64,000 nucleotides of DNA from Nanobdellota archaeon (GTDB lineage: Archaea > Nanobdellota > Nanobdellia > Pacearchaeales > GW2011-AR1), in the NCBI GenBank assembly GCA_030648155.1, contig JAUSIK010000013.1, forward strand, positions 65,924 through 129,923. Reading direction: 5' to 3'. How positions within the stretch are numbered: the stretch's first letter is position 1; each line of letters begins with the position of its first letter. Shown here one piece after another: positions 11,464-48,286 of this stretch. The position numbers and the translations under genes are program-made. The notes below the pieces were generated by a model. That model did no database searches, was not told the origin of the DNA, and saw only the letters and a program-made list of their open reading frames with translations.

Positions 11464-11549
11464 AAAAATTTTAAGGGATGAAGGGTTTTAAAGATTACTA
11501 TGAACTCTTTAACTCTTGGTTAGTGAATAATGGAGTTAGAGAGGTTAAT

Positions 11550-17997: not shown

Positions 17998-18004
17998 AAA
18001 GCCT

Positions 18005-18062
18005 GATAAATAACTTTTAGTTATAAAGCTGGAGGGGTTATCCAACAAAAGATTCTATAGTC
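18005..18062 (+). repeat. att-like repeat A: conserved motif gataaataacttttagttataaag followed by a 32-bp copy of the tRNA-Gln 3' end plus trailer
   Basis: ctggaggggttatccaacaaaagattctatag at 18031-18062 matches 26 of 32 positions of ctggaggggctatgaaacaaaaggttagatag at 17425-17456, which spans the tRNA-Gln 3' end and its trailer. Confidence 0.6.
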
Positions 18063-18126: not shown

Positions 18127-18864
18127 GTGAAAATAAAAATTAATTTTCAAAAAGAAAAGATAGGATTATATCCTAAGAATAGAATTAAGAAAGTTTGGAA
18201 TAATCCTCAAATAGTTACGACCTCTGTAAAACCTACAATAGTAAAAGATGGAAATAAAAATGTTCTCCAATTAGGTTTTTCAAAAGGAAAGTTTGGAAAG
18301 GAAGATAAGGCAAGCTGGCATATAAATTTTAAAAAAAGTTATGAAGTTTTATATTGCCAGTATAAGGTAAAGTTTGAGAAAGGTTTTGACTGGAAATTGG
18401 GGGGAAAATTGCCTGGATTTGGTGGAGGAGACAAACCCGGAGGAGGAAAACAGTCTAAGGAGGGTTTTTCCTCAAGAGTTATGTGGCGCGAAAAAGGAAC
18501 AATGCATCAATATGTCTATTATCCAGAAAACAATGCTCATTACGGAAAAGGGTTCTGGTGGCATAATCTGTGCTCTAATAAAATTGAACAATTGAAATTC
18601 AAGCCTGGTAAATGGCACACTATAAAAATGAAAATCAAAATGAATAACAACTGGAAAGATCCGGGGCATATAATCTCATGGCTTGATGGAAAACTTGCCC
18701 TTTACCAATACATCGACCTAAGAGAAAAGAATACCAAAGAATATGGGGTTGAGTCATTTATTTTTACAGTATTCTTTGGTGGCGATGACAAAAGTTTTGC
18801 TCCAAGAAAAGATTGTAAGATTTATTTTGATGATTTTATAATTTCTGATAAAGATATTAAATAA
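18127..18864 (+). CDS. hypothetical protein, possibly a concanavalin-like polysaccharide lyase (PL14/PF14099-like)
   Basis: The GGKLPGFGGGDKPGGG motif is recalled from PF14099 lyases. Composition is beta-rich and W/Y-rich. This is a tentative call. Confidence 0.3.
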   Translation: MKIKINFQKEKIGLYPKNRIKKVWNNPQIVTTSVKPTIVKDGNKNVLQLGFSKGKFGKEDKASWHINFKKSYEVLYCQYKVKFEKGFDWKLGGKLPGFGGGDKPGGGKQSKEGFSSRVMWREKGTMHQYVYYPENNAHYGKGFWWHNLCSNKIEQLKFKPGKWHTIKMKIKMNNNWKDPGHIISWLDGKLALYQYIDLREKNTKEYGVESFIFTVFFGGDDKSFAPRKDCKIYFDDFIISDKDIK

Positions 18865-18908
18865 TACTTGGTTTATTTTTTTTCTGATAAATATATAAAA
18901 AATAGTCG

Positions 18909-18951
18909 GATAAATAACTTTTAGTTTAAAAGCTGAAGGGGCTATTCATTT
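18909..18951 (+). repeat. att-like repeat B: second copy of gataaataacttttagtt.aaaagctg.aggggctat, with a partial tRNA-Gln 3'-end copy
   Basis: About 38 of 44 positions match repeat A, and ctgaaggggctat matches the tRNA-Gln 3' end in 12 of 13 positions. Confidence 0.55.
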
Positions 18952-32956: not shown

Positions 32957-33096
32957 AAAAGCCTCAAGAGGGATTTGAAATACAAACTTTTTAGAAAAAA
33001 GTTTCTATGAGTTCAAAAACTTAGAAGGCTATTGATTCTCAATAGTTGTCTAGCGCATGCACAATTCCTTAAGAATTGATTGGAATTTTCAATTCC
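32957..33096 (-). mobile_element. 140-bp unit at tRNA-Thr: a 23-bp copy of the tRNA-Thr 3' end (32957-32979) plus a 117-bp hairpin-rich element
   Basis: aaaagcctcaagagggatttgaa occurs at 32957-32979 and again at 33097-33119, where it spans the tRNA 3' end plus 4 nt of trailer. The intervening sequence shares about 90 bp with 43853-43945. Confidence 0.6.
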
Positions 33097-33100
33097 AAAA

Positions 33101-33190
33101 AGCCTCAAGAGGGATTTGAACCCCCGACCCTTAGTTCGTTTGGATTTCTTCTCATACAAAACTAATGCTCTACCACTGAGCTATTGAGGC
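33101..33190 (-). tRNA. tRNA-Thr (anticodon TGT) with an 18-nt intron after position 37
   Basis: Acceptor stem is GCCTCAA/TTGAGGC, D arm GCTC-AGTGGTA-GAGC, and anticodon stem TTAGT/ACTAA enclosing a 25-nt loop. That loop is the 7-nt loop TTTGTA.A plus the intron TGAGAAGAAATCCAAACG. Confidence 0.8.
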
Positions 33191-33288
33191 ATATAAAGAT
33201 TAGATTTTGAAGAGTTTATAAGATTTTGGTTTTGTTTTTGAGCTGATTTTTATCCTTAATTTTTTGCAGATAGAAAGGTTTAAGTATT

Positions 33289-35831: not shown

Positions 35832-35972
35832 ATGAAGAAATATTTACTTTTAATAGAGGATGAGCATTTGTGGGATGAGTTTAAAAAAGTTCTAAATAAA
35901 GATATTAACAGCGAGATTCTTGAATTAATAAAAGAAAGAATTAAAACAAAAGGGGGAAGAAGAGAAAAATGA
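35832..35972 (+). CDS. possible 46-aa ORF whose stop overlaps the next gene's ATG (ATGA)
   Basis: Hand translation gives MKKYLLLIEDEHLWDEFKKVLNKDINSEILELIKERIKTKGGRREK. It could instead be leader sequence, so confidence is low. Confidence 0.2.
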   Translation: MKKYLLLIEDEHLWDEFKKVLNKDINSEILELIKERIKTKGGRREK

Positions 35973-37828
35973 TTTTTGAAAAAAAAGGGCAGATGACTAT
36001 ATTTGTTATTATGGCTATAGTATTGGCTGCAGGAATTATAACCTATTTTGTCGTTCGTGGAAACTTGGGAAATAATAATGTTCCTAGCGAACTAGAGCCT
36101 GTTTTTAATTATTATAAAGAATGCATAAGGCAGGAAACTAGAAATGGGGCAAGTTTGGCTGGAAGCCAGGGGGGATATATTGATGTCCCAGCTTACAAAC
36201 CTGGAACTGAATTTGCTCCTTTTTCATCTGAATTAAACTTTTTGGGTTTTCCAGTTCCTTATTGGTATTATGTATCTGGGAATGGACTAATAAAAGAGCA
36301 AATGCCGAGTAAAGCAGATATTTCTATTGAAATTGGAGAGTATGTTGGAGAGGAATTAGAAAGATGCGACTTTACTCCTTTTATTGCACAGGGATATAGC
36401 ATTGAGGTTGACGAGGCTGATGTTAAAGTGGATATTGAAAATACAAAATTGAGGGCAAGAGTGATTTCTGAAATGACCGTCTCAAAAGGAGAGGCATATG
36501 CTAGAATTAGCGAGCATAATATTGAAATAAATAGTAAACTAGGAAAATTTTATGATATTGCAAGAAAAATTTATGAAAAACAAAGAGCCGATGCAGTTTT
36601 TGAAACTTATGCAATAGATGTTTTAAGATTATACACTCCTGTAGATGGGGTTGAAATAAGCTGTTCTGGAAAAGTTTGGAAAACAAATGATGTGATACAA
36701 GAATTAAAATCAGGACTTGAAGCGAATATTGGTGCTTTGAAATTTAAGGGCGACTATTATAATCTTATTAACAAAAAAGGAGAATATTATGTAATTGATG
36801 CAGGTGAAGATATAGATGAGAATATTAACTTGATATATTCTAGAGAAATGCCTTCTAAAGTAGAAATAGTTGGAGAGGGAGTCGATGATGATTTAATGAT
36901 AGCTTCACCAGTAGGAATACAAGAGGGATTAGGCATCCTTGGATTTTGTTATGCTCCTTATCATTTTGTTTATGATGCCAGTTTTCCAATTATGGTGCAG
37001 ATATATAATAATGAAGAAATATTCCAGTTTCCTGTAGTGGTTATTATTGATAATAATGTTGCAAGAGAGGGAGTATTTTCAGAATTGGAGCAGGATAGTG
37101 AGGAGTTTGATTTGTGCGAGTTTATGAACCAGGATATTGAAGTAAATATTTATGATGTGAATTTAGAAAGAGCAAATGCTAATATTTCTTACCAATGCTT
37201 TAATCAGCGATGCAGACTCGGAGAAAGTAAAGATGGAAACTTTGCAGGAAAGGCTCCATCATGTTTAAATGGAGAGATTTTACTAAGGGCAGATGGATTT
37301 AGTGATAAGAGTGAAGAGTTTTCAACAAATAAAGAAAAAAATATTGATATTATACTTGAAAGGGAGTATAATGTTAAACTTGACTTAAATGTTGGAGGGA
37401 AAAAACTTGATGGAACTGCAATAATTTCCTTTACTGATTCAAATGGAGAAAGCAAAAGTACGTTATTGCCTGATTCTCCAGAGATTAAATTGAGCGAGGG
37501 CGAATACGAGATAAAAATTTATGTTTATGGAAATTCAAGCATAACTATTCCTTCAAGCAAACGAACACAATGCCAAGATGTTCCTCGATCTGGAATAATG
37601 GGCTTTTTTGGAGGGACCAAAGAACAATGCTTCGATATATCAATACCTGAAACTAAAATAGAATATGCATTAAGGGGAGGGGGCACGTCTAAGGAATATA
37701 TCCTTGCTGATTATTTAGAAACTGGAAATATTGAGATAAATGTTGATGAACTTCCTTTACCTAAATCATTAGAAGAATTACAATATAATTACGCTTCCTT
37801 TGAAGGGATGAGGGTGACAATTATATGA
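35969..37828 (+). CDS. large secreted protein with a class-III (archaeal type IV pilin-like) signal peptide
   Basis: The N-terminus MIFEKKGQ-MTIFVIMAIVLAAGIITYFVV shows the KGQ cleavage motif followed by a hydrophobic helix. It is translationally coupled to the downstream giant gene (ATGA). Confidence 0.5.
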   Translation: MIFEKKGQMTIFVIMAIVLAAGIITYFVVRGNLGNNNVPSELEPVFNYYKECIRQETRNGASLAGSQGGYIDVPAYKPGTEFAPFSSELNFLGFPVPYWYYVSGNGLIKEQMPSKADISIEIGEYVGEELERCDFTPFIAQGYSIEVDEADVKVDIENTKLRARVISEMTVSKGEAYARISEHNIEINSKLGKFYDIARKIYEKQRADAVFETYAIDVLRLYTPVDGVEISCSGKVWKTNDVIQELKSGLEANIGALKFKGDYYNLINKKGEYYVIDAGEDIDENINLIYSREMPSKVEIVGEGVDDDLMIASPVGIQEGLGILGFCYAPYHFVYDASFPIMVQIYNNEEIFQFPVVVIIDNNVAREGVFSELEQDSEEFDLCEFMNQDIEVNIYDVNLERANANISYQCFNQRCRLGESKDGNFAGKAPSCLNGEILLRADGFSDKSEEFSTNKEKNIDIILEREYNVKLDLNVGGKKLDGTAIISFTDSNGESKSTLLPDSPEIKLSEGEYEIKIYVYGNSSITIPSSKRTQCQDVPRSGIMGFFGGTKEQCFDISIPETKIEYALRGGGTSKEYILADYLETGNIEINVDELPLPKSLEELQYNYASFEGMRVTII

Positions 37829-40800
37829 GAAAAGAAATATTACTAGGGATTGTAATTTTGTTTGTTTTAGTGGTTGGAGTAGAAGCTCAAGTAGGGGGGA
37901 GTTTTTCACAATCAGTCACATATCAACATAGGGCAAGCTATCAGGCAATTTATGGGCCTGAAGATAGACTAAATACATACTGGCCTATACTGGGGGATAA
38001 AGAAACTTGCCAGGCAAGACAGGACTTTATACTACAAATTTCTCCTGCTGGATGCCAGCCTGCTGTAGTGAGGTCTGATCTATTAGCTGAACAAAATGTT
38101 CCTGTATTTTGCCAGATAGATGCATTACAAATAAACCCTTTAATTGATGTTGATAAAATTAGAAGCCTTAGATTTACTGGGAAATATCCACAAGAGATTT
38201 TAGGCGCAGGATTTCATCCTGCTAGAGCTGCATTAAGAACTAGGGACAAATTACTAGGAAGTCCATTAATAAATAATATAGGGTATGTCGTGGTAGTTTT
38301 GAAGAAAAACCCTGTTGAAAAAAATGTTCCTGACTTTGTTAATGTAACTTTATCTGCTCAAATTGATTACGAGGCAGGAAACGCTTTTGGTATTGGGAAG
38401 GCAGAATTTATTTTAGAACCAGTTAGTGATTATGAATGGGAAACGCAAAAATTCAAACAGAGTTTTTGGAATGGAAGATATTTTGTTAGACTAGAACAAG
38501 TTGATCCTAATTTTGTTGTTGTTTCTTTATTTAGCGGTGAACGAAAAATATCTACAACTAGAGTTGGAAGAGGCGAAACTAGCAGTTCTATTTGGGTTCC
38601 TGGAGTTTATTGCAGGGCTGGAGTTAAAGTCACTTATGATGGATTGGTTGCTGCCGAAAATAAGGCAACGATTTCAATAAGTGATGATAAAGGAACCGAT
38701 ATTTTAGATGTTTATGATGGAAGCAGATTTTTAAATGATAAGTGTAGTGTAGATAAAATTGAAATATATGATGAAAAAAGTAGTTCTACTGTTAAGGCAG
38801 GAAATGTAAGCATTAGATGCAGTGACGGACAGAGATTAGAGCTTAAATTAGGAGATGTTTTGAAAGAAGATAAATGGCATTTATCTGAAAAATATGATCC
38901 TACTAAAAGAATAGATGTATTTTTAGATTTAGGAAAGAAAATAAAAAGCGGAATTTATTTCAAAGATGCTAAAGTTTATTTGGAATATATTGAAAATGAT
39001 GTTAATTTTGATGGGCCTTTATTTGTACTTGAAATAGGAGAGGTAAGAAATAATGTGGTTTATATGGATGCGATAAAGTTTGGGGATGCAATTAAAGATG
39101 TTAATTTGAATGTTATTAATGAGGTTAAAAATTCTTTCGAATTGTTAGATGGGGCTAAGATTGTAAATGAGGAGTTGAAATTGGATGCCTATAATATTAA
39201 CAGCAATATTGATGAGTTAAATTTAGGCGATGAAAATGAGAATAAGCTTAGAGAGGCTATTTCTGCTTTTAGAAATGTAAGCGATCAATATCCTGCCGAG
39301 AGAGACAGCAATTCTAAAGATGGAGAAAGCTGGGGAGAAAGGGCACTTAAGAAGGCGATTGATTTAGCTTCATTGGCTGGAAAGGAAAAGATAAGGGCAG
39401 ATTTAATTAAAGAATTTGTTGATAGGTATCCTGATTCAAATTTTGCTGATAGTTATAGATATGAATATAATCAGATAGTCAGCACTGATTTTTCAAGAGC
39501 AGGTGGGGTAATAAATATAGACCAGCGGTTTTACAATGTTAGATTGGTTGATTTGGAAATACCAAGAAAACAATCTAGTGCTGATTTTGCTTTGACTGGC
39601 GTGGAATCTGGAAATGTTAAAGTAAATTTAAATGAACTAAAAAATATTATAGATAGAGGGGTAGGGTCGATTGATAGCATAAGATTAGATAAAATACATG
39701 ATGAAGAAAATGTTAAGGCTAGTATAAATTGCAGAGTTGAAAAGAGCGGGGGAGGTTATGGTTTGAAGTCAGAATCTTATAATTTGAAATTAAATGATGA
39801 GGCTACTAAGGTTTGCGATAAGGCATTCATTAAATTGAGAGATACACATATTGAACAGATTGCAAAAGTAAGATTAATACCTGAAGCACAAGGGACTAGA
39901 ACAGAGACAAATTTAACCGTAAATATTGGAATTGAAAAGAGAGCTATAAAATTATCACCTGATAAAACTAGCGAGATGATTGAAAATCTTAATGAAAGTA
40001 TTAAAAAGTGGGAGAATATAAATGAAAAATTAGGAAAGGTTGTAAGTGGATTGAAGGGTGCTTGTTTCGCAACTGCAGGCGTATTGACTGTGAAGAATTT
40101 CATAAGCGGAATAGGTGGAGAGGCACTCGCAAGGCAAAAAGTGATGGTAGGATGGACAAAAGAGTGCAGTGATTTGGTTAATGCTAATCCGCCAAAATAT
40201 CCAACATTAAATGCTTGTTATTTAGCAAAGAGTGATGAGATTAATAAAGATGTAAGCTCTGCAAATGAAGCAATAAATCAGATTAATACTAGAATTGAAG
40301 GGATTGAAAGAAATTATGTTGAAAGCAGTTCTATAGGCGGAACGGATATCAATAGGGGGAAGGCGGCGGTTGCTTACTGCAACGATTTAAAGACGAGATA
40401 TGGAACAAGAGATGTTAAAATTAAAGAAGGGGCTAATGAAAGAACTCTAAAATTTAGTGAAGTATTAGGAGATTGTGAACAAGGATATAATAATCAGGGG
40501 CTTTATGGATACAATGAGTTGAGAGAGATAGAATATAATTTGATAATGAAAGATAGGGCTTCTTCAGTTAATGTTAAAGATAGTTCAAATAGATTATTAC
40601 AAGGAAGTTATGACCAGATTTATGAAAATAGACATCGTTATGAGGAAGTTGAGAAGGCTAAAGCGACAAAGACTCTAGGATTACCTTCTGTTCCGATTGC
40701 ACCTACTAGTAGTATTAGAAAGAATGTTGTTGGAGAGGTTGTGAGTGTGGGAGGAGTTTCTTCTGATGTTAAAATTGATAAATTAGATAAGGAAAAAAAT

Positions 40801-43791
40801 ACTCATCTGGCAAGCATGAGCACTTATAATACAGAGGGATTTACTGTTAATGGTATTAAGAGAAAAGGTTTCAAGGGAGGAGATATTTACTTATTGGGAC
40901 TGAACAAAGATACAGAGGGATATTCTGTTCAGGAAGTTTATAGGAAGACTGGAGATAATAAATATGAAATATTAGATAGTAGTGAGAGGGGAGATTTCTT
41001 AGATATATATGGAATTGGCAGAATAACTCCAGCAGATAGTGTAAGTTATGCAAATTCATACGAAAACCCTGAAGTAAGATATTATGAAACTGAACCATAC
41101 AAGGGAATGCCTGCGATTGTACCTTTTGATGTTAGAGATGGGTGGTATGCTGCGACAAGACAGACTTTACCTGCATTTGGAGGAATAGGAGCATTTGATT
41201 CTAGCGGAAGAGTTACTAGTTTTTACTTATGCAATGTTGGACCTAATCATAAAGAGCAATTCTTTGAGGGATATGGGGATGATATTTGCCAATTAATTAA
41301 TTTGAATACAGGACAGCCTTATGGATTCTTCCCAGGGTTGAGTGAGACTGAAGCAAAAAGAAGAGTTGGACAGGCAGTTGGTGCAATTGAAGATGCTGCA
41401 AATCAATATGGCAGGAAACTTGCAAGAGTTGCTGGAAAGGATTTTGCGGTTGGAAGGCCTGCTGCAAACATTCCTTCAACTCAATGCCAGAACTTTATGT
41501 CTCCTGAAGAATGCCATTTAATGTTTAATGTTTGTGATCCTGTTATTTGTCCTTCATCTAGATGTGATTTTGGAGGGCAATATCCTGTAGCAGACGTTGT
41601 ACAGACTGGAATAATTGGATCAACATTATTATGTCTTCCTAATATTAGAGAAAAAATTATTATTCCTGTTTGCTTGACAGGAATACATGCTGGAATTGAT
41701 GGGTTTGTAAGTATTCTAAAAAATCATAGAGATTGCTTGCAAGAAAGTTTAGAAACTGGGAGAACAATTGGAATTTGCGACCAGATTTATTCAATATATT
41801 TATGTGAATTTTTCTGGCGACAGATTTCTCCTGTTGCCAAAGTAATTTTACCAAAGATAGTTGAACTTGCTTATGGGCAGGGAACACGAGGTGGTGGAGA
41901 ATATCTTACTGTAAGTGCAGCTTGGCAGAATACACAAGACTCTGTAAATTATTTCACTCAAAGCTATGCTGCGAATTCTATTAAAGCATTCCAGGCAAGA
42001 AGTATAGAAGAGGCAGGGGCTCCATTCTGTAAGGCATTTGTTTCTGCAAAGGCACCTACTTCGTTTGAGAGTTTAATTGAACCTGACAGTCCTCCACAAT
42101 TCCATGCATGGTTTAGTGCTACTAGATTTACAGATGCAACTGTTCCTGCTACTTCACAGTATAAAGTATTTTATCATATATTTTCTGGAAAGGATCAGGG
42201 TGTGCATTATAGTGTATATATGAAGAATCCCCCTACATCCAGCTACTATAGTTTGCCTGCCATTGTACATGTTGCTTCTGGATTTGTTGGAAGAGGGCAG
42301 TATGCAACCGAAAGTAAAGACTTTACTGCTCCAGAAGGATATAAAGAATTATGTGTAAGAGTAAATGATAAGGAAGAATGTGGATTTAAAGAAGTATCAA
42401 CAAGCTTTGCAATTAATTCTCTAAGAGATAGTTATGTAGCTGACCAGGCAAAAGAATCAGAAATAAAAACTGAAGGGGAATGCATAAGTGGAAGCACAAG
42501 TTTAAAGGCAACTGTATTAAGTCCTAATATTGGGGCAAATGCAGAAGAGGCAGGTTTGCCACAAATTTATAATAGGGGAATTGTTAGAATTTGTTCAAGC
42601 AAAAACCCTGGAAGCGCGACTGATCCTAGTAGATTTGCTGATAAGGGATTTTGCGGTGATCCAAAATTAAGATGCTGGCTTGATAAAAATAGTGTGGCTA
42701 ATGCAATAACCGATAACAATGCAGGAGTTAGAGACGCGACATTATCGGAAATTGAGAAAACTCAAAGAGAAGATTTAGCTAATAAGGGAATAATTGTTGG
42801 AGATGATGTTGCAGTAGAAGAAATTAAGCAAATAAGAGATTCTATAAATATGTTAAGGACAAAGGCAGAAGTAAGCGACCAGGAAGTAACAGAAACAACA
42901 ATTCGACTAGATTCTTTATTTGATAGAGTGGTGCTTAATCATCATAAGGCGCAAATACTTTATTTAATTGGAGACAGCAAAGCAGTGCAGGTTGAAAAAA
43001 TTATTGCAAAAATAAGAAACCAGGAGAGCAGGAAATCAGAAGTTGTGAAGGGAACAGAGGTTCCGACTCCAACTGAAACTCCAAAGGCAACTGCTACTGT
43101 GACACCAAAGTCAACTCTATCTCCAGAGGCGACTCCGCAAGTTACAAATAATCCTGTTAAATTAACTCTTGGGCAGGATTATAACAGCAAGATTAAAATT
43201 TATTTGTATAAAGATGGAAAGATTACAGATATTTATTTTTTGAATTCAGAGATATTTATTGAAGATTTTGCACTTTGGATTGATAGAAGAATTGGAAAAG
43301 TGAATAAAAATAAAATAGAGGTATTTTCTTATAATATTGATGATACTAATACTGCATTAGGGGGAGAGTATGATGAATTTTTTGACGGGTATTTTGTTGA
43401 GGGAAGAAATATAATAAAAATAGAAGGTACAAAAGAGGTTATTGATGCAGAAAGGAGTGAGGGAGATTATCAATACATATTAAGCAATGAGTATAACCCT
43501 GAAAATACGATTAGCATCATAGAAAAAAGTTCTACTGCGGATAGAATAATATTGATTATTGAGAAAGGAAAAATTTATACTCCTCAATTAAAGATATTGA
43601 TCGGAAATGTTCGACCAATTGAGGAAGGATTATTTGAAATTCAACTAATTAGTGAAGCTAATAGTGTGAACGGATTACAAGCTTATTTAGATAGCAAAGG
43701 ATTATTTATTCCTGAAAGTAAAGTCCTCATTTATTACAATTTAAATAATGCGATTATCGAGGGAAAAGAAATAATTATATCTTTAACTTGA
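37825..43791 (+). CDS. giant (1988 aa) secreted surface protein or adhesin, with a Cys-rich central module and a C-terminal T/P-rich linker
   Basis: Sec-type signal MRKEILLGIVILFVLVVGVEA. A Cys cluster lies around residues 1290-1420, and the linker reads PTPTETPKATATVTPKSTLSPEATPQ. No enzymatic motif is recognisable. Confidence 0.6.
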   Translation: MRKEILLGIVILFVLVVGVEAQVGGSFSQSVTYQHRASYQAIYGPEDRLNTYWPILGDKETCQARQDFILQISPAGCQPAVVRSDLLAEQNVPVFCQIDALQINPLIDVDKIRSLRFTGKYPQEILGAGFHPARAALRTRDKLLGSPLINNIGYVVVVLKKNPVEKNVPDFVNVTLSAQIDYEAGNAFGIGKAEFILEPVSDYEWETQKFKQSFWNGRYFVRLEQVDPNFVVVSLFSGERKISTTRVGRGETSSSIWVPGVYCRAGVKVTYDGLVAAENKATISISDDKGTDILDVYDGSRFLNDKCSVDKIEIYDEKSSSTVKAGNVSIRCSDGQRLELKLGDVLKEDKWHLSEKYDPTKRIDVFLDLGKKIKSGIYFKDAKVYLEYIENDVNFDGPLFVLEIGEVRNNVVYMDAIKFGDAIKDVNLNVINEVKNSFELLDGAKIVNEELKLDAYNINSNIDELNLGDENENKLREAISAFRNVSDQYPAERDSNSKDGESWGERALKKAIDLASLAGKEKIRADLIKEFVDRYPDSNFADSYRYEYNQIVSTDFSRAGGVINIDQRFYNVRLVDLEIPRKQSSADFALTGVESGNVKVNLNELKNIIDRGVGSIDSIRLDKIHDEENVKASINCRVEKSGGGYGLKSESYNLKLNDEATKVCDKAFIKLRDTHIEQIAKVRLIPEAQGTRTETNLTVNIGIEKRAIKLSPDKTSEMIENLNESIKKWENINEKLGKVVSGLKGACFATAGVLTVKNFISGIGGEALARQKVMVGWTKECSDLVNANPPKYPTLNACYLAKSDEINKDVSSANEAINQINTRIEGIERNYVESSSIGGTDINRGKAAVAYCNDLKTRYGTRDVKIKEGANERTLKFSEVLGDCEQGYNNQGLYGYNELREIEYNLIMKDRASSVNVKDSSNRLLQGSYDQIYENRHRYEEVEKAKATKTLGLPSVPIAPTSSIRKNVVGEVVSVGGVSSDVKIDKLDKEKNTHLASMSTYNTEGFTVNGIKRKGFKGGDIYLLGLNKDTEGYSVQEVYRKTGDNKYEILDSSERGDFLDIYGIGRITPADSVSYANSYENPEVRYYETEPYKGMPAIVPFDVRDGWYAATRQTLPAFGGIGAFDSSGRVTSFYLCNVGPNHKEQFFEGYGDDICQLINLNTGQPYGFFPGLSETEAKRRVGQAVGAIEDAANQYGRKLARVAGKDFAVGRPAANIPSTQCQNFMSPEECHLMFNVCDPVICPSSRCDFGGQYPVADVVQTGIIGSTLLCLPNIREKIIIPVCLTGIHAGIDGFVSILKNHRDCLQESLETGRTIGICDQIYSIYLCEFFWRQISPVAKVILPKIVELAYGQGTRGGGEYLTVSAAWQNTQDSVNYFTQSYAANSIKAFQARSIEEAGAPFCKAFVSAKAPTSFESLIEPDSPPQFHAWFSATRFTDATVPATSQYKVFYHIFSGKDQGVHYSVYMKNPPTSSYYSLPAIVHVASGFVGRGQYATESKDFTAPEGYKELCVRVNDKEECGFKEVSTSFAINSLRDSYVADQAKESEIKTEGECISGSTSLKATVLSPNIGANAEEAGLPQIYNRGIVRICSSKNPGSATDPSRFADKGFCGDPKLRCWLDKNSVANAITDNNAGVRDATLSEIEKTQREDLANKGIIVGDDVAVEEIKQIRDSINMLRTKAEVSDQEVTETTIRLDSLFDRVVLNHHKAQILYLIGDSKAVQVEKIIAKIRNQESRKSEVVKGTEVPTPTETPKATATVTPKSTLSPEATPQVTNNPVKLTLGQDYNSKIKIYLYKDGKITDIYFLNSEIFIEDFALWIDRRIGKVNKNKIEVFSYNIDDTNTALGGEYDEFFDGYFVEGRNIIKIEGTKEVIDAERSEGDYQYILSNEYNPENTISIIEKSSTADRIILIIEKGKIYTPQLKILIGNVRPIEEGLFEIQLISEANSVNGLQAYLDSKGLFIPESKVLIYYNLNNAIIEGKEIIISLT

Positions 43792-43829: not shown

Positions 43830-43970
43830 TGAAATGCGGGAAGAAGGATCCTGAAATACAAACTTTTTAGAAAAAAGTTTCTATGAGTTCAAAAACTTAG
43901 AAGGCTATTGATTCTCAATAGTTGTCTAGCGTATGCACATTCCTTCAGAATTGACATGATCTTTGATCAT
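43830..43970 (-). mobile_element. 140-bp unit at tRNA-Leu: a 20-bp copy of the tRNA-Leu 3' end (43830-43849) plus a 120-bp element homologous to 32980-33096
   Basis: tgaaatgcgggaagaaggat occurs at 43830-43849 and again at 43970-43989, where it spans the tRNA 3' end plus 5 nt of trailer. Positions 43853-43945 are about 95% identical to 32975-33068. Confidence 0.6.
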
Positions 43971-43974
43971 GAAA

Positions 43975-44058
43975 TGCGGGAAGAAGGATTCGAACCTTCG
44001 AAGGCACTAAGCCACTTGGTCCTAAGCCAAGTCCGTTTGACCGCTCCGGCATCCCCGC
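43975..44058 (-). tRNA. tRNA-Leu (anticodon TAG), long variable arm
   Basis: 84 nt. Acceptor stem is GCGGGGA/TTCCCGC, anticodon stem CTTGG/CCAAG with loop CTTAGGA, a 15-nt variable arm, and T arm GAAGG-TTCGAAT-CCTTC. Confidence 0.8.
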
Positions 44059-44368
44059 ATAAAATTAGGGAGATAAATAGAGTTTTAAAGATTTGGGTTA
44101 GAGATTTTAAAAATTCAAAGTACTGATATTATTCTTAAAAAGGATTTGTGGAAAAAAGAAATGATAGTCCATATGATGGCAAGAAGGTTGATTCAAGCTA
44201 TTTGATCGATAATAAAAGTAGAATTCTGGCATAATAGTGAAAAGTATAAATTATTGAATAGAAATAATAAAAAATATTATTCGAAACAAGTTAAATTCTG
44301 CAAAAATGAGCAGTTAAGTGCTCTTTGATAAATGTTCTTGACTTTTAGAGATAGGAATGTTTATAAAT

Positions 44369-44390
44369 ATGTTTATACATGTATAAACAT
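44369..44390. promoter_or_regulatory. perfect palindrome atgtttatac-at-gtataaacat overlapping the probable start codon (44389) and a tttataaata TATA-like box, a putative operator
   Basis: The 10-bp arms are exact reverse complements. The arrangement is the same as at the paralog, 33289-33308. Confidence 0.45.
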
Positions 44391-45177
44391 GAGACATGAG
44401 ATAATTAAACAGGCATTTAAATTAGGGAATTCTGCTGGAGTTCTTCTACCTAATGAATGGAGAAACAAGAAAGTATTGATTAAACTTATTGAAAAATCTA
44501 TTACAGAAGAGATATTTGAGATTTTAGAGGAGAATAATTTGTTGAAAAATACAATTGGGATTTTTTTAGCTGGGAGCTATGCTAGGGGAGAGGAAACGGA
44601 AGATAGTGATATTGATGTTTTAGTTATAACTGATAATTTCAATAAGCAAATAAAAAATGGAAAATATGAGATAGTTTTTATTTCTAAAGATAGATTAGAC
44701 AACTCTATTATGAAAAGTATTTATTTAGCTTCTTTGATTAGTGAATCTAAGGCAATTTTAAACGGGTATTTTTTAGAACTGTATAAAAATAAGGTTAAGG
44801 GTATTTTTATAAAAAAACAATTGGATGAAATAAAATCTATGACTGGAATAAATGAAAAATCCATTGAAATAGATAAAGAAATGGGGGAGAAAGTTCCTGA
44901 TGAGACTATATATTCTGTAGTTTTGAGACTAAGAGAAATATATTTAATTGAATCCTTAAAAAATAATAAAGATTTTTCTAATAAAGAATTTTTAGGATTG
45001 ATAAGAAGCATTGCTAGTGAAGAATCATACAATGCTTATTTAAGGATTAAGAATAATTTGAAACCTAAACAGACTATTGCGGTTGAAGAAGCTATGGCTT
45101 TAATAGATGAACTAAAGAAAAGAATTAGGAGGCTGAAAAATGGCAAAAAGAAGCAAAAGATTGAAGAAAGCGATTGA
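44389..45177 (+). CDS. AbrB-like domain fused to a nucleotidyltransferase, paralog of 33309..34112. The track ORF starts at 44332, but the start is probably the Met at 44389.
   Basis: KLGNSAGVLLPNEW is a swapped-hairpin motif. IGIFLAGSYARGEETEDSDIDVLVI matches the GS...D.D nucleotidyltransferase signature. Confidence 0.55.
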   Translation: MRHEIIKQAFKLGNSAGVLLPNEWRNKKVLIKLIEKSITEEIFEILEENNLLKNTIGIFLAGSYARGEETEDSDIDVLVITDNFNKQIKNGKYEIVFISKDRLDNSIMKSIYLASLISESKAILNGYFLELYKNKVKGIFIKKQLDEIKSMTGINEKSIEIDKEMGEKVPDETIYSVVLRLREIYLIESLKNNKDFSNKEFLGLIRSIASEESYNAYLRIKNNLKPKQTIAVEEAMALIDELKKRIRRLKNGKKKQKIEESD

Positions 45178-45406
45178 GAGTTATAAAGATGAAATAGAAA
45201 AACATTTTAATAAGTTAGATAAAGATATTGAAGAAGGAGGTAATATATTGGCTAGATATTATATTAAGGAGCTAGATAAAAGTCTTATTGATGCTTTAGA
45301 AAAAAAACTTGGTTTACTAGGGGAGGATGAGGAAACTAGTGAGTTATTGAAAAAATATAAGGCACGCTTGATGGAATATAAGAAAAAAGTTGGTGAATTT
45401 GGATAA
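45140..45406 (+). CDS. hypothetical helical protein (K/E-rich)
   Basis: ORF only. Overlaps the end of the nucleotidyltransferase gene. Confidence 0.3.
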   Translation: MAKRSKRLKKAIESYKDEIEKHFNKLDKDIEEGGNILARYYIKELDKSLIDALEKKLGLLGEDEETSELLKKYKARLMEYKKKVGEFG

Positions 45407-45607
45407 ATGCCTTCAGGAGATAATTAGCATTAGGTTAAGAATCTCACGAGCCAAAAACGAGGTTTGTAGTCGATGAGCTTTTTTCATCAAAAAAGTTGTA
45501 GTTAAAAAAGTGTTAAAGTTAAACTCTGCAAAAATAGGAAGTTAAGTGCTCCCCGAATAGACTGAATCAATCACAATGGTTAAAAATGAGGGTAGGGTAG
45601 TAGAATT

Positions 45608-46315
45608 ATGTTTGGAAAAAATAAATACGTAAACTTCGTTTCAGATAAAGATTTTTTGAAGTGTGTAGAGCATGTTTGTAAAGGATATGCTGAAGCTAGA
45701 GATAATTTATCCATAGAGGATTTAAAGAGTAATGGTCTAGATCCGTTTAAGACCTTATTTGACTTAATCAATAAAAGAATAAGTTTTGATACTTGGTTAA
45801 AAAATGAAGAAATGAGACAAGCTGATAAAACTCTGAATAATAGAATTGGAGAGTTTCATCAAAAATTACTTGGAAGTGTTAAGAATTGGGTAGATTTGGG
45901 AATTGGTGATGATTCTAAGGTAGACTTAATGAAAAAAGATAAATCTATATTTATAGAGTTAAAAAATAAATTTAATACAGTAAATTCAGATTCCTTAGAT
46001 AAAGTTAGGGATAAGTTGGAAAGAGCAGTAGCACAGAATAAAAAAGCCAAAGCATACTGGGCTTTCATTATATCAAAAGACAATTCATCAGGAGATAGAA
46101 TTTGGAATAAAAAAGGTAGAAAAACAAACGAAAGAATAAGAGTAATTTATGGTTCTAAAGTTTATGAGTTAATAACTGGAGATAAAGATGCTTTAAAGAA
46201 AACTTGGTTGGCTCTCCCAAGAGCAATAAATGATTATTTCAATGGGAAAGCGGTAATGATTCCTGAAGAGGATATGAAAAAGCTCGTAGGTTTGTTTGGA
46301 TCGGCTCTTCAATAA
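45608..46315 (+). CDS. putative type II restriction endonuclease, the convergent partner of the C5-methyltransferase
   Basis: The call rests on position only. Its 3' end overlaps the methyltransferase 3' end by 77 bp, and no nuclease motif was assigned with confidence. Confidence 0.3.
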   Translation: MFGKNKYVNFVSDKDFLKCVEHVCKGYAEARDNLSIEDLKSNGLDPFKTLFDLINKRISFDTWLKNEEMRQADKTLNNRIGEFHQKLLGSVKNWVDLGIGDDSKVDLMKKDKSIFIELKNKFNTVNSDSLDKVRDKLERAVAQNKKAKAYWAFIISKDNSSGDRIWNKKGRKTNERIRVIYGSKVYELITGDKDALKKTWLALPRAINDYFNGKAVMIPEEDMKKLVGLFGSALQ

Positions 46316-47306
46316 TTTTCTCGTTTGTATTTGATAAAGCTTTAATTATTTGTTTTCCAACTTCTTCTGCTAATTTTACTGGAACAGCGTTGCCTATTTG
46401 TTTATATTGAGAAGATACACTTCCAACAAATTCCCAGTTATCTGGAAAAGTCTGTATTCTTGCATATTCTCTAATTGTGAATGGCCTTGTTTCTTCTGGG
46501 TGACATCTCTCAGTTTGTTTTTGAGAAGGAGAGGTAGTTAACGTTAAACAAGGTTCATCCCAAGAGATACGTCTCGCCATTCCTCTTTTTCCCCCGCCAC
46601 TAAATAAGCTCTTACCCATAAACTCTTTTTGAATGCCTTTTGGTAAATTTACCCAACTTCCACCAGGAGGAACTAAATCCAATACTTTCTTTCTCTTTTC
46701 AGAATATTTAGTTCCTAGGGAAGAAGGAACTTCCTTAAGAGCATCTTTTAAAGTTGTTGTATTTTTGTGAGGGGTAGGATATTCAAAATTTATCTTATCT
46801 TTTGTTCCTATAATAATAATTCTTTTTCTTTTTTGCGGAACAGAATAATTAACTGCGTCTAGTATTTTGTATTTAACTTTATAACCTAAAGAGGTAAGAA
46901 CTTCAACCATTGTTTTCAAAGTTCTACCGCCGTCATGATTAGCTAATCCTGAAACATTTTCAGCCCAGAATATTTTAGGTTGTATTTCTTTTACGGCTCT
47001 TGCAAACTCAAAAAATAGAGTTCCTCTTATATCTTCAAAACCAAGTCTTTTACCGGCATGACTAAATGCCTGACAGGGAAAGCCCCCAGTTAAAACATCT
47101 GCTTCAATTCCTTTAAAGTCAACATCTTTTATGTCTTTATGTGTAATATTCCAGTTAGGCCTATTTTTTCTTAAAGTAGATACACAATCTTTATCAATTT
47201 CATTAAGAAAAACGTTTTTTAATCCAGCTTTTTCTAAACCCAGCGCTAATCCCCCAGCACCAGCAAATAGTTCTACAATAGTAAAATCGCCCTCTTTTTT
47301 TATCAT
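46239..47306 (-). CDS. DNA (cytosine-5)-methyltransferase
   Basis: Motif I is FAGAGGLALGL, motif IV GFPCQAFSHAG, motif VI ENV, and a QIGNAV motif is present. Confidence 0.85.
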   Translation of the reverse strand: MIKKEGDFTIVELFAGAGGLALGLEKAGLKNVFLNEIDKDCVSTLRKNRPNWNITHKDIKDVDFKGIEADVLTGGFPCQAFSHAGKRLGFEDIRGTLFFEFARAVKEIQPKIFWAENVSGLANHDGGRTLKTMVEVLTSLGYKVKYKILDAVNYSVPQKRKRIIIIGTKDKINFEYPTPHKNTTTLKDALKEVPSSLGTKYSEKRKKVLDLVPPGGSWVNLPKGIQKEFMGKSLFSGGGKRGMARRISWDEPCLTLTTSPSQKQTERCHPEETRPFTIREYARIQTFPDNWEFVGSVSSQYKQIGNAVPVKLAEEVGKQIIKALSNTNEKIIEEPIQTNLRAFSYPLQESLPLSH

Positions 47307-47407: not shown

Positions 47408-48286
47408 CTAAAACCACTTCTTTAATGATTGGTTTTGGTATTTAGAGAGATTAGTCTCAAACTGCCAGAAGTTTATTTGTCCATTTGGATTTTTTGTATA
47501 TATTCCTTTTTGGGTATCAAAGGTTACTTCGAAGTTACTGCCTGAGAATTTTTCTTTCATATATCTTAACACCTCTATTCTCTCTTTTTGTTTATTTGAA
47601 AGTGTAGTATTCTGATTATCCAATCTTGTTTGATTTGTACTTAAGTTACATGTTGGGCAATCCAGACTATAAAATGCAGCAACACCGCTAAAAAAGTCAG
47701 CTATTTGACATAAAGGAAATTTCTTAGAATCTACTTGTTCTATCTCTGATACGGCAAAATCTTTTTTTATCTCAAAAATGTGACTTCCATCTTCTTTCTT
47801 CTTGATAAATATTTTTGATGAAATATTATCCAAAATCTTCTTTAATTCTTCCCAATTAATTACTCCCTGCTCATCTGGAAATATAACCCATTCTGCTTCC
47901 GAAGACCACCTTTTTGTAAATACATTTTTGAACAAGTGGAAATACATTTTTCCCAAGATAGTGTTATTGTCTTCTGGAATTTGTTCCTTTCTTTTATAGG
48001 AGTTCCAAATAACAACATCGATTCTTAGAGTTTTATCTTTTAGAAACTGAAAAACCAAGTCAATAATTTTTTTGGCGGCTAATCTTTCTCTTGCGCTTCC
48101 TAGTTTAGACCATTTAAATTCCTTAAGCCCAGATTCTGTTAAGAGTTTTGCCATTTTATTTTCGATTAAGCTAACAGCTTTCAGTTCCATAGATAGCATA
48201 CATATTGAGCTATATTCTCCTCCGTGATAATATGATTCATCAGAGTAAGCTACATGAGTATGATTTTTTTTATTCCTTTCTTCCAT
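47408..48286 (-). CDS. DUF3800-like protein
   Basis: VAYSDESYYHGGEYSS parallels the YIDESG start of DUF3800, and LCQIADFFSGVAAF parallels the QIADLIA motif. Confidence 0.4.
   Translation of the reverse strand: MEERNKKNHTHVAYSDESYYHGGEYSSICMLSMELKAVSLIENKMAKLLTESGLKEFKWSKLGSARERLAAKKIIDLVFQFLKDKTLRIDVVIWNSYKRKEQIPEDNNTILGKMYFHLFKNVFTKRWSSEAEWVIFPDEQGVINWEELKKILDNISSKIFIKKKEDGSHIFEIKKDFAVSEIEQVDSKKFPLCQIADFFSGVAAFYSLDCPTCNLSTNQTRLDNQNTTLSNKQKERIEVLRYMKEKFSGSNFEVTFDTQKGIYTKNPNGQINFWQFETNLSKYQNQSLKKWF

Follow-up and report, generated by a model that had tools for sequence, protein, structure and literature searches.

Candidate miniature insertion cassettes with duplicated tRNA 3' ends in a Nanobdellota archaeon and related DPANN archaea

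Downstream of the tRNA-Leu(TAG) gene in the analysed window (a stretch of 64,000 nucleotides from contig JAUSIK010000013.1 of a Nanobdellota archaeon), a non-coding insert of 120 nt is bracketed by two exact copies of the tRNA 3' end, and a sister copy is hosted by a tRNA-Thr(UGU) gene in the same window. The arrangement is best explained, with a probability that we put at roughly 0.55, as a non-autonomous miniature insertion cassette at the tRNA T-loop-to-3' end, accompanied by an att- or TSD-like target duplication. Units of this class are common in Woese-/Pacearchaeota (DPANN), and similar inserts follow roughly one sixth of the tRNA genes sampled in related DPANN archaea.

The tRNA-Leu(TAG) gene (43974-44059, minus strand) is complete and has no encoded CCA (ARAGORN; Rfam tRNA, 56.5 bits at 43975-44058), and its last 15 nt sit within the proximal copy of the repeat (43970-43989, minus strand), which covers tRNA positions ~59-73 and 5 nt of trailer. 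The repeat (TGAAATGCGGGAAGAAGGAT) is exact at 43830-43849 and 43970-43989, with a spacing of 140, and confirms the 20-bp repeat around a 120-bp insert described in the initial annotation. On the tRNA strand it reads ATCCTTCTTCCCGCATTTCA, that is, ATCCTTCTTCCCGCA followed by TTTCA, and is composed of the last 2 nt of the T-loop, the 3' strands of the T-stem and of the acceptor, the discriminator and 5 nt of trailer. The distal (orphan) copy (43830-43849, minus strand) lies 38 nt from the stop codon of a convergent gene of 1988 aa. Between the two copies, the insert (43850-43969, minus strand), the long form of a unit family called A here, is a chain of hairpins with no real ORF, the sole ORF being spurious, antisense and running through the tRNA. 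Its order on the tRNA strand is hp1, hp2, linker, hp3, terminal module and a T-loop-like TTCAGG, with a 2-nt filler (GG) at the junction. Hairpin hp1 (43955-43971, minus strand), directly after the tRNA trailer, is a perfect 7-bp palindrome (CATGATC-AAA-GATCATG), and the terminal hairpin module (43856-43900, minus strand) consists of AGTTTTTGAACTC-ATAGAA-ACTTTTT-TCT-AAAAAGT-TTGTAT. The unit holds local hairpins only, with no terminal inverted repeats (TIRs) and nothing pairing its two ends, and the orphan repeat has no complementary partner inside it. T-runs are present inside the core, and the fold stability of the units is modest (z about -2.2 to -2.5).

At the sister locus (32957-33120, minus strand), a 23-nt repeat (32957-32979 and 33098-33120) surrounds an insert of 118 nt (32980-33097). 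The host tRNA-Thr(UGU) (33101-33190, minus strand; ARAGORN; Rfam, 63.3 bits) is intact, has an intron at the canonical position and is directly followed by T5. The spacing here is 141, so that the 140 bp first given for both loci holds for tRNA-Leu only. The two inserts share a core of ~103 nt (43852-43954 at Leu and 32976-33079 at Thr, minus strand) comprising hp2, GTGCATRCGCTAGAC, hp3 and the terminal module. Identity is 99% over 88 nt (32976-33063 against 43852-43939), blastn lengthens the match to 115 nt at 94.8%, and a 53-nt core probe gave two matches, against none in 100 shuffles. The near-perfect match of about 90 bp noted initially is therefore borne out, the 'first 90 bp' of the plus strand being the tRNA-distal part of the insert. 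The different palindrome noted at the tRNA-proximal end is also real, hp1 of the Thr locus being TTGGAATT-GAAA-ATTCCAA (33080-33098) in place of the Leu palindrome. The core is paired with the Thr repeat at one locus and with the Leu repeat at the other, and the other three tRNAs in the window lack a duplicated 3' end. L001, an independently made Logan assembly from the same organism, includes the distal repeat of the Thr locus and breaks off 30 nt inside the core, as is expected of a repeated element.

The initial view that the same element had entered at two tRNAs was right in that both copies belong to one family and each has a duplication of its local 3' end. The Leu copy looks recombinant: its hp1 is unlike that of the Thr locus and agrees with the hp1 found in tRNA-Leu units of L094 (unit 3), L083 and L097, and the copy probably arose by joining hp1 of a short-form unit to a long-form core within hp2. 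As a whole it resembles a recombinant of two unit types more than a plain second insertion of the Thr copy. A larger duplication spanning both loci, with paralogous nucleotidyltransferase-like genes, was rejected; such genes lie upstream of both tRNAs and have no significant similarity to each other.

A survey of 170 loci from related Woese-/Pacearchaeota (DPANN) MAGs, with 166 tRNAs, scored copies of each tRNA's last 14 nt with one mismatch allowed. Downstream same-strand copies numbered 32, against ~0.1 expected by chance, while among the same 166 tRNAs no copy was found upstream and none was inverted. In a non-redundant set of 138 tRNAs, the match was 14/14 in 11, 13/14 in 7 and 12/14 in 3, and controls never exceeded 11/14. 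Repeat geometry follows the structure of the tRNA: of 26 cases, 16 had the left edge of the repeat at positions 60-61 and the rest had it inside the T-loop; the right edge lay +1 to +5 nt beyond the discriminator in 23 of 26, and the repeats take in trailer bases, never CCA. Repeat length ranged from 12 to 38 nt (mostly 14-18 nt) and varied even within one unit family, and a T-loop-like sequence often preceded the orphan repeat. Orphan repeats were nearly all perfect, even where the units diverge by ~20% between genomes, and they followed acceptor/T-stem differences between genomes with homologous units (the window, L083 and L094; L016 and L017; L054 and L071). Occupancy was very uneven: tRNA-Leu(TAG) had units at no fewer than 15 of its 43 loci, Gln at 4 of 21, Thr-UGU at about 4 of 32 and Val-GAC at none of 29. 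One Val-GAC locus (L078), in which an N-run separates two copies of the tRNA 3' end, is possibly a missed case.

The units are non-coding, 47-130 nt long and made of hairpins (three to four per unit), with a conserved terminal hairpin abutting the orphan repeat. Several families were found, common to different genomes and different tRNAs, and the repeat was always the local tRNA's own. Family A, that of the window, occurs at both Leu and Thr, and family B at tRNA-Leu (L137, L147, L153, L099, L097) and tRNA-Gln (L066); most families stay with one tRNA species across genomes. Homologues of the window core were present at tRNA-Leu(TAG) in at least five other genomes (L083/L084; L094/L095, units 1 and 3; L150, two units; L167; L114), with a degenerate one at tRNA-Leu(AAG) in L159. 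The initial annotation had weighed the case of a core present in sister genomes with the duplications absent; the sister homologues (L083, L094, L150, L167 and L114) come with duplications. Eight variants of the Leu 3' end were seen, each with a matching local repeat. Unrelated unit families have only the repeat architecture in common and share no termini.

Units also occur in arrays, in which n units are separated and bounded by n+1 repeats (L094, with three units, L153, L066, L027 and L150), and the arrays always end in a repeat, not in a unit. Plain tandem duplication or slippage was rejected on this ground and because the DNA beyond the orphan repeat shows no relationship to the unit. The number of units changes fast among relatives: genomes with identical tRNA-Leu 3' ends carry 0, 1, 1 and 3 units (L101, the window, L097 and L094, respectively), and a second set with identical ends carries 0, 1 and at least 2 (L093, L122 and L150). 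The mobile or recombination-driven process proposed at the outset agrees with this recurrent, directional and fast-changing pattern (32 downstream copies against none upstream or inverted, arrays, and families spread across tRNAs and genomes). The units are multi-copy, and assemblies break inside them (L001; the N-gap in L078). The tRNA-Thr gene of L002 and many tRNA-Leu genes are unoccupied, with downstream flanks that are not collinear with the window, and no filled and empty pair with otherwise collinear flanks was found among the surveyed relatives. L153 and L154 were discarded as such a pair, their tRNAs being 99% identical and the remainder only ~77% identical and rearranged. Of three proteins of the window used to seek strain variants through the flanking genes, two had no database entry. 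The tRNA-Leu(TAG) flank is a hot spot of variable content, where some relatives carry toxin-antitoxin genes and a serine recombinase. At tRNA-Thr, gene-sized cassettes bounded by the same kind of repeat (L017, L011) sit beside a 66-nt unit common to L016 and L083, and the cassettes flanking the repeats in L017 and L011 have conserved ends. Only one larger repeat-flanked insert, of 1.4 kb and without an integrase, was seen among the 166 tRNAs.

The terminal hairpin follows the pattern NUAGAA-stem-loop-stem-UUGUAN' and contains a G·G mismatch; its closing pair covaries, occurring as AU, CG, GC, UA and UG. All 13 instances of the module fold alike, RNAalifold reported compensatory changes in 7 of 18 pairs, and the covariation score was 0.46, whereas shuffles gave 0.16 and none of 500 came as high. 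The stems are almost wholly Watson-Crick and could therefore fold equally as DNA, on either strand. A generic 'hairpin + TTGTA' terminator motif was rejected, as it is not enriched in the window (17 matches against 13-30 in shuffles). The module is not confined to tRNA 3' ends; it also lies immediately 5' of tRNA-Leu and of the start codons of nop10 and SRP54. The right end of the unit is identical to the 3' end of a tRNA-Leu 5' leader found in L164 and L167, and in L083 a 41-nt module sits at an ATG in the manner of a discrete insertion. A role of the module as promoter of the downstream gene was dismissed, the spacing to the tRNA +1 being wrong and the real promoter in L164 lying ~95 nt upstream. 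Gene-end duplication with an insert occurs at tRNA 5' ends as well (L116, L140, L071), and in L083 it takes the form of a ~79-nt repeat at the SRP54 promoter and 5' coding sequence. Within the window, a possibly related 1.2-kb cassette (44288-45551, plus strand), with a nucleotidyltransferase gene and an 88-aa ORF, is bounded at a non-tRNA site by 36-nt direct repeats (44288-44323 and 45516-45551; 32/36 identical), and two module-like hairpins ending in TTGTAG lie at about 45443-45507, just ahead of the second repeat. The initial proposal that tRNA 3' structure rather than sequence is recognised was not upheld, given the uneven occupancy, the mostly tRNA-faithful families and the repeat and module sites outside tRNAs.

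Pfam searches of the window ORFs of at least 166 aa revealed no integrase, transposase, Cas1 or reverse transcriptase; no recombinase was matched among the window ORFs, and no Cas1 or PolB gene in the window. A 23-mer from the core had no matches in metagenome, genome and viral contigs of public collections, four other unit patterns had none in viral contigs, and blastn of the core against phages and plasmids returned nothing meaningful. Against Rfam 15, only tRNAs reached the gathering threshold and nothing credible appeared at E<=10 in the unit regions. A bulge-helix-bulge (BHB) intron or split tRNA was rejected, the tRNA being complete without splicing and the central helix unable to form; checked by hand in the required register, with splice sites placed equivalently in the two repeats, the 4-bp central helix must be self-complementary, which GAAU (Leu) and AAAU (Thr) are not. 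A second or pseudo-tRNA in the unit was likewise rejected (no acceptor 5' strand, no Infernal match), and for a C/D-box, H/ACA or guide RNA there were no boxes on either strand and no nuclease gene nearby.

Under the insertion-cassette reading, a hairpin unit of 118-120 nt would integrate at the tRNA 3' end and the terminal segment of the tRNA (from the T-loop or the 3' strand of the T-stem through the discriminator, plus a few trailer bases) would be directly duplicated, one copy completing an intact tRNA and the other being left as an orphan beyond the insert. The units would be mobile as such, moved in trans by a putative recombinase or integrase acting at the tRNA T-loop-to-3' end, and insertion itself would create the duplication, which the enzyme may produce or carry in the manner of a tRNA att site or a casposon-type TSD. 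Several observations count against this reading. Repeat lengths of 12-38 nt are unlike those of a fixed-ruler transposase, and one core with both Thr and Leu repeats is hard to reconcile with a sequence-specific integrase. In addition, hp1 is locus-specific and the core is shared, so that gene conversion between pre-existing units could give the 99% identity with no new insertion. The near-perfect orphan repeats could reflect selection or concerted evolution, that is, a function, and an enzyme in the window, TIRs, a clean filled and empty pair and a viral, phage or plasmid copy are all lacking.

Such a function might be exerted as RNA, the units being co-transcribed 3' extensions of pre-tRNAs or small RNAs made from the tRNA promoter, whose hairpins and tRNA-3' mimic would serve processing, stability, termination or regulation, with selection keeping the orphan repeat. 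The compensatory changes in the hairpins, the faithfulness with which orphan repeats track acceptor and T-stem differences, and the exact correspondence of the repeat to the uninterrupted 3' strand (positions 61-73) of the acceptor/T minihelix are in keeping with this, as is the terminal module in transcribed 5' leaders, abutting the tRNA-Leu +1 and ATG codons; the core T-runs could terminate transcription on both strands. However, close relatives whose tRNAs are identical differ in whether they carry units, in how many and in which family, so that an essential role is unlikely, while unrelated families are alike only in repeat architecture. The unpartnered orphan repeat, modest fold stability, missing Rfam match and stems that fold equally well as DNA also argue against an RNA role, which we consider unlikely, and T5 right after tRNA-Thr should stop most transcripts before the unit. 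It is distinctly unlikely that the units are scars of viruses or plasmids that integrated through a tyrosine integrase and were almost completely deleted, leaving attL, two att-flanking arms and attR: elements that decayed independently would not have kept a common core of ~103 nt, 99% identical, at two tRNAs, nor are discrete families (47-130 nt) whose ends are fixed and whose hairpins covary expected in many genomes, and the units hold no coding remnant, with a single larger insert in the survey. This is so even though a direct, downstream-only repeat from T-loop to 3' end is the classic tRNA att signature, a T-loop-like sequence before the orphan repeat would be expected of an element-borne att arm, and the tRNA-Leu(TAG) hot spot with its toxin-antitoxin genes and serine recombinase, and the conserved-end cassettes at tRNA-Thr (L017, L011), would suit such an origin.

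The clustering of left edges just past the T-loop, together with right edges that vary in the trailer, would also be accounted for by templated insertion with no dedicated mobile-element enzyme, through template switching by a reverse transcriptase or during replication, or through homologous, Campbell-type integration of small circles, each of which is expected to leave an insert beside a duplicated gene end. In the reverse-transcriptase version, a nick past the tRNA gene would prime cDNA synthesis on the pre-tRNA 3' end; copying would proceed as far as the modified T-loop and then switch to an abundant structured RNA. Junction fillers of 0-2 nt (GG at Leu), unrelated inserts with no common termini, the like duplications at tRNA 5' ends and SRP54, and unit right ends that coincide with the end of the tRNA-Leu 5' leader (L164, L167) point the same way. 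Still, the window encodes no reverse transcriptase, the repeats hold trailer bases and never CCA, arrays ending with a repeat speak against slippage-type tandem duplication and the reading is purely inferential; we hold it to be very unlikely. Chance similarity or an assembly artefact, for which nothing speaks except that MAG assemblies can mis-join repeats, has a negligible probability, as chance falls far short of explaining the exact repeats and the core, the architecture recurs in dozens of independent assemblies and Logan contig L001 reproduces the Thr junction.

Integrated elements are known to leave tRNA gene fragments (PMC9897764, PMC3293823). The insertion cassettes favoured here resemble tRNA-targeting integrative elements (tyrosine-integrase attL/attR; archaeal SSV- and pNOB8-type) in the downstream-only direct repeat of the tRNA 3' part and the regeneration of an intact tRNA (PMC9897764, PMC3293823, PMC8371274). 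Tandem occupancy and a tRNA flank that is a hot spot for variable genes are further likenesses, whereas the present units are 47-130 nt long, have neither integrase nor cargo, form families with conserved hairpin structure and pair one core with two tRNA identity blocks in one genome. Casposons target the tRNA 3' end with the TΨC-loop region as an upstream 'leader', make target duplications of 14-15 bp (up to 35 bp), reuse a site to form tandem arrays parted by a shared TSD, and have a casposase that tolerates varied DNA ends (PMC5137440, PMC4779613, PMC6977970). In likeness to casposons and, by extension, to CRISPR spacer integration, the units most often have repeats of 14-18 nt and form arrays with n+1 repeats; unlike casposons, they have no TIRs and no Cas1 or PolB in the window, their repeat is contained almost entirely in the tRNA, of which casposon TSDs cover just 4-5 bp, and its length varies within a family (20 and 23 nt in the window). 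With MITE-like repeats (REP/BIME, RPE and Correia-type) they share being short, non-coding, multi-copy, intergenic, hairpin-built modular mosaics, but differ in their long target duplications, tRNA-end specificity and lack of TIRs, no RAYT or transposase having been identified. Integron arrays also place short, often ORF-less cassettes at a fixed site, with a structured imperfect end hairpin bearing a conserved mismatch and a cargo from none to whole genes; here, in contrast, the anchor is a tRNA end and no IntI-type integrase is known, and integron recombination makes no 12-36-nt duplications. Archaeal non-canonical tRNA introns and split tRNA genes likewise tie extra sequence to the T-loop region in a DPANN lineage, but the tRNAs here are complete without splicing and show no BHB motif in the required register.

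A wider proposal, which we regard as doubtful though possible, is that a previously undescribed cassette-insertion system operates in Woese-/Pacearchaeota, in which hairpin-ended units, from cargo-less modules of 50-130 nt to gene cassettes, would be put at gene termini, above all the tRNA T-loop-to-3' end, by a trans-acting enzyme duplicating 12-36 nt. The resulting arrays would lie between casposon TSD, CRISPR and integron, with the conserved hairpin NUAGAA...UUGUAN' and its G·G mismatch serving as the site of recombination or recognition.

DPANN archaea have genomes of ~1 Mb in which few mobile elements are recognised. At tRNA loci, the units interrupt short-read assemblies; they also create orphan tRNA fragments able to confuse tRNA annotation, and mark hot spots at which defence and toxin-antitoxin cassettes enter. 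The iterated layout of a tRNA 'leader', a 'repeat' of 13-25 nt and a short insert is formally that proposed for the casposon-to-CRISPR transition, and the enzyme behind the units would therefore be of evolutionary interest. If the units are functional RNAs, archaea would possess a new class of structured RNA linked to tRNAs. If they are mobile, an active insertion process would be at work at tRNA ends in DPANN archaea and, to our knowledge, no smaller tRNA-targeted insertion units are known; tRNA gene ends in these archaea appear to be landing pads for very small mobile DNA units.

Five tRNA genes were found in the window, in agreement with Rfam, and a duplicated 3' end was found at two of them, the complete tRNA-Leu(TAG) (43974-44059, minus strand; 56.5 bits) and the complete tRNA-Thr(UGU) (33101-33190, minus strand; 63.3 bits, 90 nt, with an intron at the canonical position), and not at the other three. 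The tRNA-Thr(UGU) orthologues in L002, L003, L011 and L016 (handles from L002 to L170 denote loci fetched from related Woese-/Pacearchaeota MAGs) have introns of other length or none. On the tRNA strand, the tRNA-Leu gene ends in ...GGTTCGAATCCTTCTTCCCGCA and is followed by the trailer TTTCA; next come the perfectly palindromic CATGATC-AAA-GATCATG, a stretch of about 103 nt in common with the Thr locus (the core), TTCAGG and, directly 3' of this, a second ATCCTTCTTCCCGCATTTCA. The exact 20-bp repeat that the initial annotation had described around the insert at tRNA-Leu was recovered (20/20 identical), while the 140-bp spacing claimed for both loci held at tRNA-Leu (140 nt) and came to 141 nt at tRNA-Thr, where the repeat is TTCAAATCCCTCTTGAGGCTTTT (23/23 identical). 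The near-perfect match between the two inserts was likewise borne out by pairwise alignment (88 nt at 99%; 115 nt at 94.8% by blastn), as was the distinctness of their tRNA-proximal palindromes, which have no sequence relationship. A 53-nt core probe matched twice in the window versus never in 100 shuffles. De Bruijn assemblers are expected to break on entering a repeat; in an independent assembly of the same organism (Logan contig L001) the Thr distal repeat is present and the contig breaks 30 nt into the core, which is what a repeated sequence would cause. A strong promoter motif, AATCTTTAAAAC (gene strand), lies about 32 nt upstream of the S27e gene and of both tRNAs in the same form (11460-11496, 33189-33225 and 44057-44093), consistent with leaderless transcription.

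The window comes from a DPANN archaeon and covers a housekeeping region, with genes for ribosomal proteins S27e and S3Ae, SRP54, FtsY (nearest homologues at 76-78% identity, in Woese-/Pacearchaeota MAGs), TBP, TFB, DNA ligase, a RadA-like protein and a tRNase Z-like protein, and no Pfam match to an integrase, transposase, Cas1 or reverse transcriptase was obtained for its ORFs of at least 166 aa. The Leu insert, or unit, lies between tRNA-Leu and the stop codon of a convergent gene for a 1988-aa cysteine-rich secreted protein, which together with a likewise convergent gene for a 619-aa protein occupies 35969-43791; both proteins were without a Pfam match, and their synteny with tRNA-Leu(TAG) is kept in many Woese-/Pacearchaeota contigs (L083, L091-L170). 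On the promoter side of tRNA-Leu, a nucleotidyltransferase gene and a small ORF are followed by an Eco47II-type restriction enzyme with a C5 cytosine methylase (45608-47306) and a DUF3800 protein (47408-48286); with the nucleotidyltransferase pair these genes form a small defence/toxin-antitoxin cluster. Elsewhere in the window, two tandem 165-nt copies (7248-7577; 93% identical) lie within a 364-aa ORF (6755-7849) without a Pfam match, and a promoter-like 72-nt region is duplicated (17973-18044 and 18877-18948; 75% identical) around a polysaccharide-lyase-14 gene (18127-18864), which may be another cassette-like arrangement.

The exact core had no match in JGI metagenome, GTDB genome, IMG/VR, phage or plasmid collections, and related loci were therefore fetched through their proteins, FtsY and the C-terminus of the giant protein yielding 80 loci each and a flanking hypothetical protein a few more. 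The window and the 170 fetched loci hold 166 tRNAs; the final 14 nt of the tRNA, with one mismatch allowed, recurred downstream on the same strand in 32 cases (about 0.1 expected by chance), and never upstream or inverted. Among 138 non-redundant tRNAs the best downstream match was 14/14 in 11, 13/14 in 7 and 12/14 in 3, against a maximum of 11/14 in the upstream and reverse-complement controls. Occupancy was uneven among tRNA species, with a downstream repeat at no fewer than 15 of 43 Leu(TAG) loci, 4 of 21 Gln(UUG) loci, about 4 of 32 Thr(UGU) loci (including L016, mistyped as Tyr, and L083, overlooked through an ARAGORN end offset) and none of 29 Val(GAC) loci, of which L078 is perhaps an overlooked case. 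Runs of Ns, noted in L006 and in L078, where the run falls exactly between the tRNA-Val 3' end and its downstream copy, are probably scaffold gaps caused by a repeated unit.

The inserts are non-coding and 47-130 nt long, and the flanking repeat was the local tRNA's own sequence in every case, through eight variants of the Leu 3' end. Of 26 cases, 16 had the left edge of the repeat at tRNA position 60-61 (the others within the T-loop) and 23 its right edge 1-5 nt beyond the discriminator, so that the repeat takes in, without a break, the 3' strand of the acceptor/T-arm minihelix, the discriminator and some trailer; most repeats were 14-18 nt long (range 12-38), and CCA was never included. The search of related genomes proposed in the initial annotation returned units of family A, to which the window core belongs, each with the local repeat: long forms at tRNA-Leu(TAG) in L094/L095 (unit 1), L150 (two tandem units), L167 and L114, and short forms, without the third hairpin of about 37 nt, in L083/L084 and L094 (unit 3). 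A degenerate long form was found at tRNA-Leu(AAG) in L159. Family B consists of a TTCGAAC..GTTCGAA hairpin, a middle hairpin and a final hairpin closing with CGAGTA or CGTGAG, and occurs at tRNA-Leu (L137, L147, L153, L099, L097) and tRNA-Gln (L066); a 66-nt unit 'X' occurs at tRNA-Thr (L016, L017, L083), and a further family is common to the tRNA-Gln loci of L054 and L071. Arrays have n units with n+1 repeats, the units being three different ones in L094, two identical ones in L153 and L150, and two diverged ones in L066 and L027. Where tRNA-Leu 3' halves are identical, the number of units is 0 (L101), 1 (window), 1 (L097) or 3 (L094); turnover is thus fast. Small palindromes of a further family, with ...TGTTCRYC at the start and AGAGCGAATCRRAGA at the end, are present at the tRNA-Leu 3' flank of L116, L143, L147 and L152, directly after the tRNA or after an orphan (distal) repeat; in L143 and L152 the tRNA-end duplication is absent.

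The Leu and Thr copies show few differences, clustered in the second hairpin. First hairpins of the WWGGAWTY type were seen in the long-form units of L094 (unit 1) and L150 and at the window Thr locus, and those of the CATGMTC type in short-form units (L083, L094 unit 3) and L097; the window Leu copy has a short-form first hairpin and a long-form core. The simplest reading of these sequences is that a short and a long unit would once have lain at the Leu locus in that order and recombined within the second hairpin, the Thr copy then being the canonical long form. Such a recombinant origin weakens the idea that one copy was simply the donor of the other. It does not affect the observation that long-form units, each with the local repeat, are present at Leu as well as Thr genes, as the initial annotation had held for one element at two different tRNAs.

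RNAalifold, run on six members of family A, supported hairpins 2 and 4; compensatory changes were seen at 7 of the 18 pairs. The best-defined part of the unit is its 3'-terminal module, in which a G·G mismatch separates a lower stem of 3 bp from a variable upper stem with its loop in 13 of 13 instances, with conserved strands NUAGAA and UUGUAN', and AU (5), CG (3), GC (2), UA (2) or UG (1) as closing pair. In a skeleton alignment of the module, with the variable apex replaced by GAAA, 89% of cells pair versus 74% in shuffles, and the covariation score was 0.46 versus 0.16 (0 of 500 shuffles as high); sliding the partner columns abolished this signal. The covariation check suggested earlier for the hairpins was positive for this module. 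The whole unit folds only modestly more stably than shuffles (z about -2.2 to -2.5). As the stems are almost wholly Watson-Crick, they are compatible with either strand, and with RNA as well as single-stranded DNA.

Modules and repeat-flanked inserts also occur beyond tRNA 3' ends. In L167 and L164 (in the latter within a leader of about 70 nt, 3' of the real promoter) the terminal module immediately precedes tRNA-Leu position +1, and its short form lies directly 5' of the ATG of nop10 (L018) and SRP54 (L015), where it provides a GGAGG Shine-Dalgarno-like sequence. In L083 (16020-16970), the SRP54 promoter and first 34 nt of coding sequence form a direct repeat of about 79 nt bracketing an insert of about 800 nt with a 197-aa ORF, and the orphan SRP54 copy has a clean 41-nt module insertion (ATG...ATG) exactly at the ATG. 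Copies of roughly the first 15 nt of the tRNA lie 54-134 nt upstream of tRNA-Leu in L116 (twice) and L140 and of tRNA-Val in L071, mirroring the 3'-end duplications. Gene cassettes at tRNA-Thr (MFS transporter and others; L017 4611-6180, L011 4272-6600) are flanked by tRNA-Thr 3'-end copies, have conserved ends (TCACCAGTTAGTGTAAAGCC... and ...GTTAGAACATGA) and contain no integrase. In the window, a 36-nt direct repeat (44288-44323 and 45516-45551; 32/36 identical) flanks a 1.2-kb cassette (44332-45406; nucleotidyltransferase and 88-aa ORF) adjoining the tRNA-Leu promoter, with two module-like hairpins ending TTGTAG (about 45443-45507) immediately before the second copy. In L003 (8330-8570, minus strand), ARAGORN missed a tRNA-Thr with a long intron; after it come tRNA-Val(GAC) and, 2 nt further on, the orphan 3' half, from the anticodon loop to the end, of another tRNA-Val allele, identical to that of L005. 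In L140, a gene resembling those of serine recombinases but containing an in-frame stop codon lies about 250 nt 3' of tRNA-Leu(TAG), adjacent to the tRNA end. Many relatives have a short, perfectly paired hairpin (TAGAACC-TT-GGTTCTA, for instance) that abuts the mature 5' end of tRNA-Leu(TAG), within the roughly 25 nt before +1 (L099, L107, L137, L139, L143, L104, L162), and replaces the usual leaderless promoter spacing.

The inserts with their duplications at gene termini leave the gene intact, the arrangement is strictly directional, the unit families are discrete, with defined ends and conserved terminal hairpins, and units are portable between tRNAs and between genomes. Together with arrays and fast turnover, these properties are those of small non-autonomous insertion cassettes, and we put the probability that the units are such cassettes at roughly 55%; the mobile or recombination-driven process first proposed for two tRNAs finds support in the same properties in relatives. 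A classical tyrosine integrase is one candidate mover, which would account for where the repeat lies, for the T-loop-like sequence that precedes many orphan repeats and for the cassette arrays, but leaves one core with two different tRNA identity blocks unexplained, unless secondary-site integration in the conserved T-loop was followed by selected gene conversion. Sequence-independent ends, target duplication beside a TΨC-loop 'leader' and tandem arrays would instead fit a Cas1-type (casposase-like) integrase (PMC5137440, PMC4779613), a candidate that does not explain why terminal inverted repeats (TIRs) are missing, why repeat length varies or why the repeat falls almost entirely within the tRNA. 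Variable repeat lengths, and the tRNA 5'-end and SRP54 cases, would follow from templated insertion (reverse-transcriptase or replication template switching, Campbell-type integration), a purely inferential alternative. Near-perfect orphan repeats and structural covariation keep alive a role of the units as functional RNA, against which stands their patchy presence among close relatives.

Among known systems, the window feature works like tRNA att-site integration or integration that generates target duplications (TSDs), but is without the integrase and single att of integrase elements, the Cas1/PolB and TIR of casposons, and the TIR or short TSD of MITE/REP elements. It does not belong to the bulge-helix-bulge introns, matched no Rfam family, and the literature searched yielded no account of such units from DPANN archaea. 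That a putative enzyme runs a tRNA-anchored, hairpin-terminated cassette system with target duplication seems rather unlikely to us; repeat-bracketed units at tRNA 3' ends are a lineage-wide phenomenon.
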